NCBI RefSeq assembly: GCF_054482595.1
Contig: NZ_CM137008.1
Direction: 5' to 3' (one strand)
Length of the DNA stretch: 64,000 bases
Of this stretch, positions 34,895 to 39,981 are shown piece by piece (position 1 is the first letter of the stretch; each line of letters opens with the position of its first letter). The notes under the pieces were generated by a model, which was not told the origin of the DNA, searched no databases, and saw nothing but the letters and a program-made list of their open reading frames with translations. Made by a program: the position numbers and the translations under genes.

Positions 34895-35713
34895 ATGCAG
34901 CTAAGAATTACCAGTCGAAAAAAACTCACCGCTCTATTATGCGCTCTTGGGCTAATTTCCATCGTTGCAATTTATCCGCGTCAGACGGTGAATTTTTTCT
35001 ATTCGACAGCAGTTCAGATTACAGACTACATCCACTTCTACGGTTATCGCCCGGTTAAATCTTTCGCTATTCGTATTCCTGCCAGTTACACCATTCACGG
35101 AATAGATGTTTCGCGCTGGCAGGAGCGGATCGTCTGGCAGCGGGTGGCAAAAATGCGCGATAACGGTATCCGCTTACAATTTGCCTTTATCAAGGCGACG
35201 GAAGGCGAAAAGCTGGTGGACCCCTATTTTTCGCGTAACTGGCAACTAAGCCGCGAAAATGGCCTGCTGCGCGGGGCGTATCATTATTTCTCCCCGTCGG
35301 TAGCAGCGCCTGTTCAGGCGCGATTATTTCTGCAAACGGTGGATTTCTCACAAGGCGATTTCCCTGCCGTGCTGGACGTAGAAGAACGGGGAAAATTATC
35401 GGCAAAAGAATTACGCAAGCGGGTAAGTCAGTGGCTAAAAATGGTCGAAAAAAGTACGGGAAAAAAGCCGATTATTTACTCAGGAGCCGTTTTTTATCAC
35501 ACCAATCTGGCGGGCTATTTCAATGAATATCCGTGGTGGGTGGCTCACTACTATCAACGTCGTCCGGACAATGACGGCATGGCCTGGCGTTTCTGGCAGC
35601 ATTCCGACCGTGGACAGGTAGATGGCATCAATGGTCCGGTGGATTTTAATGTATTTAATGGCACGGTGGAGGAGTTGCAGGCATTCGTTGATGGGATTAA
35701 AGAAACGCCTTAA
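34895..35713 (+). CDS. yegX: YegX, glycoside hydrolase family 25 (lysozyme/muramidase-like), signal-anchored (272 aa)
   Basis: N-terminal hydrophobic anchor; GH25-like catalytic region; ATG 34895 preferred over 34886 because of the better-spaced aggga RBS. Confidence 0.75.
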   Translation: MQLRITSRKKLTALLCALGLISIVAIYPRQTVNFFYSTAVQITDYIHFYGYRPVKSFAIRIPASYTIHGIDVSRWQERIVWQRVAKMRDNGIRLQFAFIKATEGEKLVDPYFSRNWQLSRENGLLRGAYHYFSPSVAAPVQARLFLQTVDFSQGDFPAVLDVEERGKLSAKELRKRVSQWLKMVEKSTGKKPIIYSGAVFYHTNLAGYFNEYPWWVAHYYQRRPDNDGMAWRFWQHSDRGQVDGINGPVDFNVFNGTVEELQAFVDGIKETP

Positions 35714-35764
35714 ATAAGAAGCAGTGATATACTCCCACCAGACTCCCTGGCAGGAAAAAGACAA

Positions 35765-36511
35765 ATGGAACAAGCGCATACCCAGCTGATTGCCCAACTG
35801 AACGAGCGTATTTTAGCGGCGGATAACACGCCGCTTTATATTAAGTTTGCCGAAACGGTAAAAAATGCCGTGCGCAGCGGGGTGCTGGAGCATGGCAATA
35901 TTTTGCCCGGTGAGCGTGATTTAAGTCAGTTAACCGGCGTTTCGCGCATTACGGTGCGCAAGGCGATGCAGGCGCTGGAAGAAGAGGGCGTGGTGACGCG
36001 TTCGCGTGGTTACGGCACGCAGATCAACAACATCTTCGAATACTCGTTGAAAGAAGCGCGAGGTTTTTCTCAGCAGGTGGTATTGCGCGGGAAAAAGCCC
36101 GATACGCTATGGGTTAACAAGCGTGTCGTGAAATGTCCCGAAGAAGTCGCGCAGCAGCTGGCGGTCGAAGCGGGAAGTGATGTCTTTTTGCTTAAGCGTA
36201 TTCGCTATGTCGATGAAGAAGCGGTATCGATTGAGGAATCGTGGGTTCCGGCGCATTTAATTCATGATGTTGATGCCATCGGAATTTCTCTTTATGACTA
36301 TTTCCGCAGCCAGCACATTTACCCACAACGTACACGTTCCCGCGTTAGCGCCCGGATGCCAGATGCCGAGTTTCAGTCACATATTCAGTTAGATAGCAAA
36401 ATACCGGTGCTGGTGATCAAGCAAGTGGCGCTTGACCAACAGCAACGGCCTATTGAGTACAGCATTAGCCACTGTCGCAGCGATCTATACGTTTTTGTGT
36501 GCGAGGAGTAG
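35765..36511 (+). CDS. yegW: GntR-family transcriptional regulator YegW (248 aa)
   Basis: N-terminal winged-HTH typical of GntR/HutC regulators plus a UTRA-like C-terminus. Confidence 0.85.
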   Translation: MEQAHTQLIAQLNERILAADNTPLYIKFAETVKNAVRSGVLEHGNILPGERDLSQLTGVSRITVRKAMQALEEEGVVTRSRGYGTQINNIFEYSLKEARGFSQQVVLRGKKPDTLWVNKRVVKCPEEVAQQLAVEAGSDVFLLKRIRYVDEEAVSIEESWVPAHLIHDVDAIGISLYDYFRSQHIYPQRTRSRVSARMPDAEFQSHIQLDSKIPVLVIKQVALDQQQRPIEYSISHCRSDLYVFVCEE

Positions 36512-37450
36512 TTCCTCGCGCGTTGGCGCACAATCACCGCCCCGATGCCCGACAACCCACGACGCCACTGCATTGCCCAGTAATACGGCATCCGCCAGTG
36601 GCAGACCAGAGGCCAGCCCGGCAAGTACGCCACCGGCATGACTGTCGCCCGCCCCAATGGTGTCGACAACTTGCGTTGGAAATGCCGGAATGCAGCCAGA
36701 AGCGTCGTTGCTGAAATACCATGCGCCTTCTTTATCGAGACGAACGATCAACGGCGCGGCAAATTTCTCCTGCCATTGTTTGCCAAGTGTTGTTATCTCT
36801 GCGGGTAAAGCAAAACGTTCGGCGGCAATCTCAGCCTCTTGACGATTGAGCGACACTAAAGGGCGACAGGCCATGATCCGCGCCAGTAATGCATCCGGGA
36901 TATCGCCAATACGTGGGCCAAAATCGATAAACGGCGTCACGTCTTGCAGCTCTTCCAGCCATTCCACTAACAATTCGCCGCAGGGCGAGGCCAGTTGATA
37001 ACCGGAAAAATAGAGCAGGCTGCCAGGCGCAACGGTTAATCGCGCCAGCCACTGGCGATTCCACTGATTTTCCACACCGCTGAATGACATAAAAGTACGT
37101 TCGCCATCCGGCTCAACCAGCGCCAGACACCAGCCGTTATCGCCTTCGGCGTTATCGATCAGGCTGATTAACCCCTCTTTCGCCATCCGGTTGCGAATAA
37201 TCTCCGCCCACACGCCCTGACCGAGCGGCAAGGCATTACCCGCTTCGATGCCGAGGCGCTTTAACGCCACGGCAATATTCAGTGCGCAGCCGCCAACGTT
37301 AACGCTCTGCTGTTTCAGTTCGATATCGCACCCACGCCAGGGGAGGGCATAAGCGTCGGCGATCACGTCAATGACCGCCGCGCCGACGACCATCACCGGC
37401 TGACGCGAGGTTAATTCAGGCAGCAGCGTGTGTAATCGAGCGCCGCTCAT
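36485..37450 (-). CDS. yegV: PfkB-family carbohydrate/nucleoside kinase YegV (321 aa)
   Basis: Ribokinase-like motifs (GAGDSHAGG); 3' end overlaps the convergent yegW 3' end by 27 nt. Confidence 0.85.
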   Translation of the reverse strand: MSGARLHTLLPELTSRQPVMVVGAAVIDVIADAYALPWRGCDIELKQQSVNVGGCALNIAVALKRLGIEAGNALPLGQGVWAEIIRNRMAKEGLISLIDNAEGDNGWCLALVEPDGERTFMSFSGVENQWNRQWLARLTVAPGSLLYFSGYQLASPCGELLVEWLEELQDVTPFIDFGPRIGDIPDALLARIMACRPLVSLNRQEAEIAAERFALPAEITTLGKQWQEKFAAPLIVRLDKEGAWYFSNDASGCIPAFPTQVVDTIGAGDSHAGGVLAGLASGLPLADAVLLGNAVASWVVGHRGGDCAPTREELLLAHKNV

Positions 37451-38451
37451 ACCGCCTCCCGTTGTTGACGATATTTCGCCAGCGCTGTGGCATAGCGGTT
37501 GAAATCAAGCTGATTTACCGCATCCAGCTCCGCCTTTAATGCAGGATCGATAGCGTTAACGCCATGCAACGCGCCGCAAATCGCCGTCGCCATAGCGCCG
37601 ATGGTGTCTGTGTCGCCGCCAAGGTTAGCGCACAGGACGGCGCAGCGATTCGGGTCGGTTTGTGCCAGTTCAACCAGCGCAATGGCGCACGGAACGGACT
37701 CAATAGTGCTGGTACCTGCGCCAACGACCTGGTAAAGCTGTTCGCTGGCGGATTCAGTGCCGTCGGCATTGCGCACAATTTTCAGCGCAATCTCCAGACG
37801 TGCTGCCAGTGAGGCGCTGAAGGTAGTGATGCGTTTTTGCTGTGCATGTCGCGCAATTGAAGGCAGTGAATCAACAATTACTGACCAGCTTTCTCCGTCA
37901 ATGGCACGAGAAATCGCCCATGCGATGACTACCGCGCCTGCAACCGCCAGATCGGATTTATGGGTCGGGCTGGACGCCAGCGCCACATCATCAATAAAGG
38001 AATCAACATCGTGCGCCGGAAGCAAACAACCTAATGGCGAGACGCGCATCGCTGCGCCGTTTGTCACGCCATTGTTTTCCAGTTCAGCAACGGGTTTACC
38101 GTCGCGAATGGCGTTAAGCGCAATCTTCGAGGTCGGACCTAGTACGTTTTTATTAAAGGCGTCGAAACGCAGCGCCCAGTCGAGAATATTACGCCCAATC
38201 AGATCCGGATCGATCTTGCCTTCACGTTCCAGTAACGCATCCGCCAGACACAGCGCCATCGAGGTATCGTCGGTGAATTCGGCGCGGTTAAAATAACAGG
38301 CCGCGTTATTCTCCTTTGGTCCAGGCAGAAAACGGTCAATCCAGCCAAAGTGTGCTTTAACGCGGCTGCGTGGCCAAAGCTCGGAGGGCATCCCCATCGC
38401 ATCCCCTAACGCCTGCCCATAAAGAGCACCGAGAATACGTTCTGTTTTCAT
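37447..38451 (-). CDS. yegU: ADP-ribosylglycohydrolase-family protein YegU (334 aa)
   Basis: Family assignment by recalled sequence similarity; translationally coupled to yegT and yegV. Confidence 0.8.
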   Translation of the reverse strand: MKTERILGALYGQALGDAMGMPSELWPRSRVKAHFGWIDRFLPGPKENNAACYFNRAEFTDDTSMALCLADALLEREGKIDPDLIGRNILDWALRFDAFNKNVLGPTSKIALNAIRDGKPVAELENNGVTNGAAMRVSPLGCLLPAHDVDSFIDDVALASSPTHKSDLAVAGAVVIAWAISRAIDGESWSVIVDSLPSIARHAQQKRITTFSASLAARLEIALKIVRNADGTESASEQLYQVVGAGTSTIESVPCAIALVELAQTDPNRCAVLCANLGGDTDTIGAMATAICGALHGVNAIDPALKAELDAVNQLDFNRYATALAKYRQQREAV

Positions 38452-39725
38452 TTAACTTCCCCTTGTGTCAACGCAATATCGCGATCATCGACCTTGATAG
38501 CCGTAATTTCGTTGTCGGATTCGCGGAAAAAAATCATGAAAAGCACGGCGATAATGGCAATCATCACCGCGCCAAAAGTCCACATCCCGGACCAGTTGAA
38601 AGTCAGTCCGTTTACCGGTTCCTGATAAGCGAACATCTTTTCCATCATCACACCGCCAAGACGATAGCCGAGCAAACTGCCGAAGCCCTGGCAGCAGAGC
38701 GTGATCAGACCCTGCGCGGCGGTACGCATATGCACGGGGGCTTTTTTATCGACATAGATGTAAGCGGTAACGTAGTAAAAATCGTAACTTACGCCGTGCA
38801 GCAAAATGCCGAGGAACAGTAACGCGTAGGTGAAATATTCATCCGCACTACCGTAAATAAAGAAGCCATAGCGGATCGCAGCGGTGACCAGACCAAGCAA
38901 TAATACCTTTTTGATACCAAAGCGTTTAGTGAAAAACGGCAATGCCAGCATAAAGAAGATTTCAGAGAACTGGCCGAGCGTCATCCAGCCAGTGGCGTTT
39001 TTCATGCCGACTTCGGTCAGATACCCGTTGGCAAAGATGTAATAGAACGCCAGTGGCATCGCAAACAGGAATGAACAGAAGAAAAAGACGAGGAAGTTTT
39101 TATCGCGCAGCAGGATCAGCGCATCCAGGCCGAGCATGACTTTAATGTCCATTTTGCCGGTGCTTTTTGGCGGCGTGTCGGGCAGGAAAAACGCAAACAC
39201 ACCGAGCAGAGCAGAACTTCCGGCGGTAATCAGCAGCGGGATGTTAGTCGGTGAGATATCGGCATACCCCAGCATTTGCGGCAAGAAACCACATGCCAGA
39301 CCGGAGGCAATCCAGCCGATAGTGCCCATCACACGAATGCGCGGGAAATCACGCTCCACATCCGGCACGTTGGCAAAAGCGATGCTGTTAGTCAGCGCAA
39401 TGGTCGGCATATAGGTTAGCGAGTAGGCCAGCAGTAACGGGAAGAACCCGGCAAAAGTGGTCTGTTGCGCAGCGAAATACATCAGCACCGCACCAGCGAA
39501 CATCAATACCGCCAGCACTTTCTGCGCCGAGAAAAAGCGGTCAGTGATGGAGCCAACCAGAATTGGCGACAGGATCGCCGCAATGGCTGTGCAGGCATAC
39601 GACCAGCCAATTTCTCCGGCACTAAAACCGCTTTTACTTAACCACAGCCACAATGGCACAAACCACGCGCCCCAGATAAACCATTCAACAAACATCATGA
39701 ACGACAGCTTTGCTGTTGTTTTCAT
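38448..39725 (-). CDS. yegT: MFS nucleoside:H+ symporter-family transporter YegT (425 aa)
   Basis: 12-TM MFS-like hydrophobicity pattern; first gene of yegTUV. Confidence 0.85.
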   Translation of the reverse strand: MKTTAKLSFMMFVEWFIWGAWFVPLWLWLSKSGFSAGEIGWSYACTAIAAILSPILVGSITDRFFSAQKVLAVLMFAGAVLMYFAAQQTTFAGFFPLLLAYSLTYMPTIALTNSIAFANVPDVERDFPRIRVMGTIGWIASGLACGFLPQMLGYADISPTNIPLLITAGSSALLGVFAFFLPDTPPKSTGKMDIKVMLGLDALILLRDKNFLVFFFCSFLFAMPLAFYYIFANGYLTEVGMKNATGWMTLGQFSEIFFMLALPFFTKRFGIKKVLLLGLVTAAIRYGFFIYGSADEYFTYALLFLGILLHGVSYDFYYVTAYIYVDKKAPVHMRTAAQGLITLCCQGFGSLLGYRLGGVMMEKMFAYQEPVNGLTFNWSGMWTFGAVMIAIIAVLFMIFFRESDNEITAIKVDDRDIALTQGEVK

Positions 39726-39981
39726 CTTTTAATTCCTTCATGACAGGTAATGTAAGGTACGCGATGACAATACCATTTAATAATACCTTTTAAATACCTT
39801 TGCGGTGAAAACTTGACCGCGGTAACATTTTTTCTGATGAATCGAGCCAACAGAAAACGCTGAAAAAACATCCAAAAGATGGAAAAACTCGCCCGTAACG
39901 ACCAGGATTATGATTGCCCGCAAAAGGCGGGCCAGGAAAATCCATAGCCGATATCCAATCGGAATTTACGGGAGCATAGTA

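Follow-up and report, generated by a model that had tools for sequence, protein, structure and literature searches.

What the yegTUV operon of Escherichia coli does, and on which compound, is the question raised by a 64,000-nt stretch of DNA (the window; NCBI RefSeq assembly GCF_054482595.1, contig NZ_CM137008.1), in which the genes of a transporter (yegT), a putative ADP-ribosylglycohydrolase (ARH; yegU), and a PfkB-type kinase (yegV) converged on that of a GntR-family regulator (yegW, renamed ggaR). A preliminary description of this locus had suggested salvage or catabolism of some ribosylated compound, and this idea was strengthened by the comparative genomics reported here (fusions, adjacency, transporter types, and deaminases; see below). 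In the preferred reading, to which we give about as much credence as doubt, yegTUV would be an operon for uptake and breakdown or salvage of a noncanonical riboside, with kinase YegV acting before hydrolase YegU and with YegW as the repressor. The four genes were placed by the open reading frame (ORF) list and RefSeq as follows:

35765-36511, + strand: yegW (ggaR), RefSeq coding sequence
36485-37450, - strand: yegV
37447-38451, - strand: yegU
38448-39725, - strand: yegT

The ORF list, the sequence itself, and the RefSeq annotation of a 99.8% identical E. coli chromosome gave the same four gene boundaries. With positions 35700-39950 of the window (4251 nt) as the query against 5426 complete E. 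coli genomes, matches with 95-99.8% identity were found in 5424 records from 5423 of these genomes, and a single match covered at least 80% of the query in 5419 of the 5426; yegTUV-yegW was a core E. coli locus.

The family assignments of the preliminary description held for all four products, namely TIGR00889 for YegT, PF03747 for YegU, PF00294 for YegV, and GntR plus UTRA for YegW, and in the literature searched no substrate of YegU or YegV was established. None of YegU, YegV, and YegW was given an equivalog-level name by NCBIfam, and the PDB sequence and fold searches returned only ARH3, DraG, MJ1187, and generic PfkB kinases, with no liganded close homologue that would reveal a substrate.

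The evidence for a joint function of YegU and YegV came from their relatives. A full-library search returned 234 cluster representatives as YegU relatives (E <= 1e-30), and 11 of the 12 proteins of at least 599 aa among the top 150 YegU relatives were ARH-PfkB fusions, which occurred in both domain orders: (i) the kinase was N-terminal in P0187, P0196, P0204, P0206, P0208, P0209, and P0214 and (ii) it was C-terminal in P0201, P0217, P0232, and P0255. One fused homologue had a marginal match to the pseudouridine kinase model NF007355 (7e-07). Apparent fused genes in two high-GC actinobacterial loci (L054 and L075) were not used, as they might be artefacts of the longest-ORF caller; the case for fusion is drawn from the predicted proteins just named. 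The YegU alignment was moreover scanned over one genome per species, resulting in 79 loci; YegU and YegV homologues were adjacent or one gene apart in many phyla, and they were either adjacent or transporter-separated in Enterobacterales, Vibrio, Aeromonas, Bacilli, Lachnospiraceae, Negativicutes, and Chloroflexi. The YegU-YegV pair was a core conserved across phyla and repeatedly fused, which is new here, and because of these fusions and this adjacency the hydrolase and the kinase would act together. The transporters linked to the pair were as follows:

NHS transporter (YegT): Enterobacterales and Vibrio
NCS1 permease (PF02133): 17 loci, lying in most cases between the homologues of YegU and YegV
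PnuC (TIGR01528, 149.6 bits vs cut-off 42.45; PF04973): 12 loci, after the YegV homologue, mostly in Lachnospiraceae and other Clostridia
BMP-type ABC transporter: one Anaerolineales locus
ECF transporter: one Bacillota locus

The NCS1-bearing loci belonged to Aeromonas, Bacilli, Lactobacillaceae, Dialister/Mitsuokella, Chloroflexi, and a Burkholderiaceae metagenome-assembled genome, and the linked importers could be further described as CytX-like (NCS1) and 'B6'-like (BMP-ABC). The linked transporter swapped its type, always within families that include carriers of nucleosides, nucleobases, or vitamins (a finding also new here), and a HutC-type regulator often adjoined the pair. Two distant loci additionally contained deaminase genes that hint at an adenine-like aglycone: an adenine deaminase (TIGR01178, 572 vs 472 bits) followed YegU-YegV-NCS1 in the Burkholderiaceae metagenome-assembled genome, and an amidohydrolase resembling methylthioadenosine/5'-deoxyadenosine deaminases lay between the YegU and YegV homologues of the Anaerolineales locus.

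Some of the surveyed loci departed from this organization. An L-lactate-type MFS gene (NF049980, 423 bits, cut-off 320) lay between yegV and a same-strand yegW in Vibrio profundi and V. fortis (L017 and L018), where no convergent overlap was present; it was lineage-specific and was not counted in the system. In Brenneria (L020) and Edwardsiella (L023 and L025), a YegU homologue stood beside a convergent YegW homologue (the latter an 87-aa fragment only in Brenneria), and YegT and YegV homologues were not found in the ORF calls of these three loci, for which decay, rearrangement, or missed genes are possible. A conserved protein of ~270-290 aa with a marginal match to methanogenesis marker 2 (4e-07) was encoded beside the YegU homologue at L064 3663-4526 and L066 7153-7962, and in L064 it belonged to an ECF-transporter operon that also has a HutC regulator.

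YegT was a full-length member of the NHS family (654.5 bits against the nucleoside permease model TIGR00889, cut-off 446.1) and essentially identical to PDB 8zoj, 'putative nucleoside transporter YegT' (6.9e-282); the GxxxD protonation motif of transmembrane helix (TM) 10 was found as G311xxxD315 in a 12-TM MFS fold. By these profile and motif matches it is assigned as an NHS-family MFS transporter paralogous to NupG and XapB. The crystal structure of YegT was solved by Xiao et al. 2025, who found by isothermal titration calorimetry that none of uridine, adenosine, cytidine, and guanosine bound significantly and who reported cavity residues unlike those of NupG and lack of conservation of four uridine-contacting NupG residues (PMC11979927). 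Since YegT bound none of these four nucleosides and its cavity differed from that of NupG, the riboside would be one outside the canonical four.

YegV matched PF00294 (PfkB) at 1.9e-56 and carried the motifs GG53-54, N202xxE205, and D263TxGAGD269, which were invariant or nearly so in 53 homologues. It scored far under every NCBIfam equivalog cut-off, including those of the two ribokinase equivalogs (81.4 bits for TIGR02152, cut-off 299.65, and 59.1 vs 341 for the other), and this placed it outside the RbsK equivalogs. When the YegV family profile was compared with PDB, ribokinases were closest (1e-35 to 1e-30), followed by adenosine kinases (~1e-23) and the Salmonella aminoimidazole riboside (AIRs) kinase 1tyy (1e-21). 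RbsK contacts ribose through N14, D16, K43, N46, E143, and D255, with D16, N46, and D255 holding ribose hydroxyls and N14 contacting the anomeric hydroxyl. In the alignment, D16, N46, and D255 were retained in YegV as D28, N58, and D269, whereas N14 and K43 were replaced by V26 and C55, the latter being 91% conserved in the family. Given that N14 sits at the anomeric hydroxyl, the replacement of N14 and K43 would leave room at C1, and the YegV pattern therefore fits a C1-substituted ribose. YegV as an RbsK orthologue was rejected on the sub-cut-off scores together with these two replacements; ribokinase activity itself was not rejected, and YegV is best assigned as a ribokinase-like PfkB kinase other than an RbsK orthologue. 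YegV was still an 'uncharacterised sugar kinase' in a 2025 preprint, and the authors who observed its cleavage by Prc in vitro considered this non-physiological.

YegU matched PF03747 at 4.7e-66. Its AlphaFold (AF2) model, built from 32 homologues, had a mean predicted local distance difference test score (pLDDT) of 97.1 and found its best PDB fold match (Foldseek) in MJ1187 (1t5j; TM score 0.82/0.90), followed by a Thermus ARH-like protein, ARH3 (TM score 0.75-0.78), and DraG. YegU residues E24, T60/D61/D62, and D280/D282/T283 aligned to the ARH3 metal ligands E41, T76/D77/D78, and D314/D316/T317, and among the 32 homologues D61 and D282 were invariant and the others conserved. As modelled, YegU is a hydrolase of ARH fold with an intact two-metal site, and it lay outside the equivalogs DraG (TIGR02662, 79 bits vs 337) and Tri1 (NF041672, 69.2 vs 490). 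Both enzymes look active, judging from the metal ligands kept in YegU and the GG, NxxE, and DTxGAGD motifs kept in YegV. The solved structures among the YegU fold matches indicated that known ARH substrates bear a 5''-phosphate, and characterized ARH enzymes are specific for alpha-anomers.

YegW had a GntR domain (PF00392, 7.3e-16, residues 29-87) and a UTRA domain (PF07702, 3.5e-36, residues 108-242), and from these matches it is placed in the HutC subfamily of GntR regulators, with an N-terminal helix-turn-helix (HTH) and a C-terminal UTRA effector domain. Its nearest solved structure was NagR/YvoA; NagR senses sugar phosphates, and HutC regulators typically sense phosphorylated intermediates. 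The regulon mapping proposed in the preliminary description is already published: Saito et al. 2024 renamed YegW as GgaR and found yegTUV as its single genomic target by ChIP-chip (chromatin immunoprecipitation on microarrays), with ADP-glucose as an in vitro effector and a glycogen phenotype (PMC10819704). In that work, yegTUV was one 3.3-kb mRNA repressed by GgaR and ~30-fold derepressed in a ggaR deletion; ChIP-chip and electrophoretic mobility shift assay (EMSA) placed one binding site in the fbaB/yegT spacer, where a 190-bp probe upstream of yegT bound GgaR, and a weaker one inside yegT (probe 5, ORF nt 571-869). In EMSA GgaR was released by 10-100 uM ADP-glucose and by neither ADP nor glucose; at 6 h glycogen was about twofold higher in the ggaR deletion, and a yegV deletion was reported to lower it (PMC10819704). 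GgaR was present at a constant ~20 molecules/cell, as measured only in operon-repressed conditions (PMC10819704).

No GgaR consensus or footprint was reported in PMC10819704, and the GGTATT repeats found here are offered as a candidate GgaR operator, a small new prediction. The predicted regulatory sites were as follows:

39756-39798, - strand: candidate primary GgaR operator, with GGTATT repeats at 39798-39793, 39787-39782, and 39774-39769 plus inverted GTACC at 39760-39756
38889-38918, - strand: candidate secondary operator inside yegT, GGTATCaaaaaGGTATTATTgcttGGTCTG, a near-identical 30-mer at ORF nt 808-837 encoding G-I-K-K-V-L-L-L-G-L
39780-39809, - strand: predicted sigma-70 yegTUV promoter from a consensus scan, with -35 TTCACC at 39809-39804, an 18-nt spacer, and -10 TATTAT at 39785-39780

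The candidate primary operator had the pattern GGTATT-N5-GGTATT-N7-GGTAT-N9-GTACC, its part at 39798-39769 reading GGTATTtaaaaGGTATTATTaaatGGTATT on the yegT strand, and fell within the 190-bp GgaR-bound probe; the candidate secondary operator fell inside probe 5, ~880 bp downstream of the first. The 64-kb window contained only two occurrences of the 30-nt pattern (0 expected), and since the pattern was derived from these same two sites, the count is descriptive and not a test. As independent support, phylogenetic footprinting over 12 genera gave AAAGGTATTTAAAAGGTATTA, TGGTAT, GTACC, and the ribosome-binding region as the conserved upstream blocks, and Vibrio retained GGTATTgtattGGTATT. The second GGTATT of the internal copy requires the codons GTA and TTR, and it was kept in 14 of 25 loci vs ~5% expected from the Val/Leu codon usage of each gene (an eye count over loci that are not phylogenetically independent). 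The repeats overlapped the predicted -10, which belonged to the sole promoter-like match upstream of yegT; promoter-like sites numbered 2 in the region vs 4.4 expected from shuffling, so that the promoter call is weak alone, and it is plausible because of its overlap with the conserved repeats. DNA looping between two sites 880 bp apart, with ~10 repressor dimers/cell, is conceivable as a speculation.

Taken in order, the preferred reading would run as follows: (i) YegT would import the riboside by proton symport; (ii) YegV would phosphorylate the ribose 5'-OH of this riboside; (iii) YegU, through its ARH fold and two-metal site, would cleave the resulting 5'-phosphoriboside to ribose 5-phosphate plus the aglycone; and (iv) YegW (GgaR) would repress the operon by binding an operator of direct GGTATT repeats that covers the core promoter, together with the weaker copy in yegT, probably being released by a phosphorylated pathway intermediate that ADP-glucose possibly mimics. 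The kinase-first order is favoured because YegV is nearest to ribokinases and keeps D28, N58, and D269 with N14 and K43 replaced, because ARH substrates are 5''-phosphorylated, and because the regulator is NagR-like. The candidate operator motif, conserved and present in both published binding fragments, is also consistent with this reading. We infer on these grounds the substrate class, the reaction order, the true inducer, and the operator identity.

Several points weigh against a kinase-first pathway for a noncanonical riboside. The substrate class is proposed from genomic context alone, and within that context the deaminase links are two anecdotes only. The nearest characterized YegV relatives are ribokinases acting on free ribose, as a hydrolase-first order would have it, and the position of RbsK E143 is Ala (A154) in E. 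coli YegV; the family consensus there is a weakly conserved Glu, and E143 was for that reason dropped as a discriminating residue. To our knowledge, no ARH enzyme cleaves a simple nucleotide, the characterized ones acting on ADP-ribosyl conjugates. The operator identity is a sequence prediction, and conserved codons account for part of the internal copy. Neither the only experimental effector, ADP-glucose, nor the only phenotype, glycogen content (PMC10819704), is directly explained by this pathway.

Three other explanations were weighed together with the preferred one. It is possible, though on balance unlikely, that YegU comes first and cleaves the unphosphorylated riboside to free ribose plus aglycone, with YegV as a dedicated ribokinase, in the manner of nucleoside hydrolase plus RbsK or of the Bacteroides ribose-utilization system Rus. 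The best profile scores of YegV were indeed on ribokinases, in Bacteroidetes ribose-utilization loci ribokinases occur together with ADP-ribosylglycohydrolases whose putative role is the cleavage (bioRxiv 10.1101/574913), and fusions plus synteny suit either reaction order equally; this order has against it, however, that YegV is well under the ribokinase equivalog cut-offs (81 vs 299.65 and 59 vs 341) and is without RbsK N14 and K43, that E. coli already has RbsK, that the ribose of known ARH substrates is phosphorylated, and that a HutC regulator would generally respond to a phosphorylated intermediate. The published ADP-glucose/glycogen model, in which YegT, YegU, and YegV act on or make ADP-glucose and YegW senses it to tune glycogen, is regarded as improbable. 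It draws on the release of GgaR from its operator probe by ADP-glucose, on the ~30-fold rise of yegTUV mRNA with near-doubled glycogen on ggaR deletion, and on the lower glycogen of the yegV deletion, but the effector comparison covered ADP and glucose only (PMC10819704). Moreover, ARH-fold enzymes as a family cleave ribosyl C1'' bonds, of which ADP-glucose has none, and the PnuC, NCS1, BMP-ABC, and ECF importers beside the pair elsewhere do not suggest a nucleotide-sugar. The in vitro effect of ADP-glucose is real; on account of that narrow effector comparison, the lack of an obvious ARH-cleavable bond, and these transporter partners, however, we take it that this compound possibly mimics the true inducer. 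The glycogen change may follow indirectly from the 30-fold derepression, speculatively via adenine-nucleotide or ribose-5-phosphate pools.

A canonical ARH role, in which YegU would strip ADP-ribose from protein or nucleic acid as DraG, Tri1, and ARH3 do, is hardly credible: the ARH fold, the intact metal site, and the weak matches to the DraG and Tri1 models would accommodate it, but these matches were far under both equivalog cut-offs (79 vs 337 and 69 vs 490), an ADP-ribosyltransferase partner was not seen in any locus, and the constant partners of YegU were a sugar/nucleoside kinase (sometimes fused) and small-molecule importers.

The coding junctions of the locus were also compared. The overlaps were as follows:

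38448-38451, - strand: ATGA overlap of yegT stop and yegU start, with AAGGGGA upstream
37447-37450, - strand: ATGA overlap of yegU stop and yegV start, with GGGAGG 4 nt upstream
36485-36511, both strands: convergent coding overlap of yegV and yegW, 27 nt

These gene coordinates, the two ATGA junctions, and the 27-nt overlap agreed in the ORF list, the sequence, and RefSeq, as the preliminary description had them. The translational coupling of the three genes that it had also claimed is an extrapolation from the ATGA overlaps, and yegU and yegV each have in addition a Shine-Dalgarno-like run of their own inside the preceding gene (AAGGGGA before yegU and GGGAGG before yegV). Operons commonly contain four-base overlaps of the ATGA type; among Enterobacteriaceae/Pectobacterium loci, ATGA was found at the yegT end in 15 of 18 with yegT called and at the yegU end in 15 of 18 with yegV called. 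Seven distant loci (Lachnospiraceae, Epulopiscium, Cellulosilyticum, and Labrys) likewise had ATGA where a YegU homologue was directly followed by a YegV homologue. The 27-nt yegV/yegW overlap was exact in all 18 Enterobacteriaceae and Pectobacterium loci with both genes called, missing in Budvicia (97-nt gap) and Gilliamella (165-nt gap), and replaced by a same-strand, nonconvergent yegW in Vibrio. Inside the overlap, the YegW C terminus CRSDLYVFVCEE was invariant over the 18 species loci, whereas the last residues of YegV varied (LLLAHKNV, LLFADKNV, LLLTHKHI, and others), and YegW is therefore the constrained partner. A terminator scan at the yegV-yegW junction gave no terminator-like site, and across the region such matches were at chance level (7 vs 6.2 expected). 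The yegV-yegW pair is among the excludons listed by ExcludonFinder from E. coli RNA-seq in 2025 (PMC12288877), and the 27-nt coding overlap, the lack of an intervening terminator-like site, and this listing together agree with an excludon, i.e., with overlapping 3' ends and transcription.

A more specific version of the proposed pathway has a low probability: YegU would be a glycohydrolase for alpha-linked 5-phosphoribosyl small molecules, in a pathway with excludon feedback on its own repressor. The hinted candidates are cobamide lower-ligand nucleosides (alpha-ribazole and 7-alpha-ribofuranosyladenine) and anomerized or unusual pyridine ribosides, and the YegU-YegV pair with its interchangeable vitamin-type importers might recycle such alpha-ribosides; the hints are the alpha-anomer specificity of characterized ARH enzymes, the two deaminase loci, the PnuC, ECF, CytX-like NCS1, and 'B6'-like BMP-ABC importers, and the YegT that binds no canonical nucleoside. 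Read-through from the induced operon would lower the repressor (~10 dimers/cell) and make a positive-feedback switch, and the glycogen and ADP-glucose effects would be side effects of a regulator recognizing adenine-ribosyl groups and of altered nucleotide pools. If this were true, YegU would be the first ARH-fold enzyme catabolizing a free metabolite.

Further observations concerned the surroundings of the four genes. A terminator-like hairpin with a T-run, one of the 7 matches vs 6.2 expected, was present at 39699-39721 on the + strand, antisense to the first yegT codons. The stop codon of yegX (glycoside hydrolase family 25) and the start of yegW were separated by 51 nt only (35714-35764), a spacer in which no + strand promoter-like site was found, and yegW may therefore be cotranscribed with yegX or use a promoter inside yegX. 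An imperfect 17-nt inverted repeat, GGATTATGATTGCCCGC / GCGGGCCAGGAAAATCC (39905-39943; 76% complementary, 5-nt loop), was located a short distance upstream of the start annotated for fbaB (39982); for this gene, the mechanical ORF list began at ATG 39910 (374 aa), and RefSeq gave 350 aa. In the E. coli collection, 2 of 5428 locus matches were on records classed as plasmids. The neighbouring gatY was annotated as frameshifted in strain 88COLEC (L080 7155-7251).

Earlier annotation or publications already covered the locus with its operon structure and regulator, as well as the YegT structure and the overlap/excludon, and the novelty of the locus description is low; with the regulon, the YegT structure, and the excludon listing in print, the earlier observation is therefore not new. 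What the comparative analysis contributes is a narrowing, which we infer, of the substrate to a noncanonical riboside. yegU and yegV still count among the E. coli core genes without a known reaction, their pairing spans many phyla including abundant gut Firmicutes, and in Salmonella a paralogous operon plays a part in persistence in the pig intestine. Identification of the substrate would close an orphan pathway, would probably give the ARH fold its first defined small-molecule catabolic role, and would clarify why derepression of the operon alters glycogen content; the candidate operator motif and the list of transporter families make the questions of substrate and regulation directly testable.

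Among known systems, pseudouridine catabolism of E. coli clusters the PfkB kinase PsuK (YeiC) and the pseudouridine-5'-phosphate glycosidase PsuG (YeiN) with a neighbouring nucleoside transporter. It would be the closest working analogy: riboside import, phosphorylation of the 5'-OH by a PfkB kinase, and glycosidic cleavage to ribose 5-phosphate plus base. YegU, however, has an all-helical ARH fold with a two-metal site, unrelated to the PsuG fold, and the pseudouridine kinase model gave a marginal YegV-type match in the one fused homologue only; with an ARH-fold YegU in place of PsuG, PsuK/PsuG is therefore an analogy of mechanism and not of membership. YegU shared with ARH3, DraG, and MJ1187 the fold (TM score 0.72-0.90) and all metal-binding residues at 20-26% identity, but it was under the DraG and Tri1 cut-offs, and its genomic partners point to a small-molecule substrate. 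YegT had the family, fold, and GxxxD motif of the NHS nucleoside:H+ symporters NupG and XapB; compared to NupG, it showed ~27% identity, had lost the four uridine contacts, and gave no detected binding of the four nucleosides. YegW had the same GntR HTH plus UTRA architecture as NagR/YvoA and other HutC GntR repressors and is likewise the local repressor of an adjacent, presumably catabolic operon, but unlike NagR/YvoA its gene converges on and overlaps the target operon. HutC-subfamily operators are typically compact palindromes, whereas the predicted GgaR operator is built mainly from GGTATT direct repeats spaced 11 and 13 bp apart, with a single inverted GTACC.

The closest characterized look-alike operon is Salmonella STM4065-STM4066-STM4067, which has the same three functions as yegTUV and a riboside-accepting kinase, and whose regulator STM4068 was reportedly described as a GntR-type repressor by Dougherty and Downs in 2003. 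In this one operon a permease is combined with a PfkB kinase and with a putative ADP-ribosylglycohydrolase, STM4066 has AIRs kinase activity, and mutation of STM4067 leads to attenuation in the pig intestine (PMC3161100). STM4066 belongs to a PfkB subfamily different from that of YegV, with 1tyy far below ribokinases for the YegV profile (1e-21). Bacteroidetes Rus, similar to yegTUV, combines ribokinase genes, a permease, and variable ribose-liberating enzymes including ADP-ribosylglycohydrolases (bioRxiv 10.1101/574913), but it differs in being a ribose-sensing system of polysaccharide utilization locus type with SusC/D-like outer-membrane components, for which no fusion or tight ARH-kinase pairing is described.

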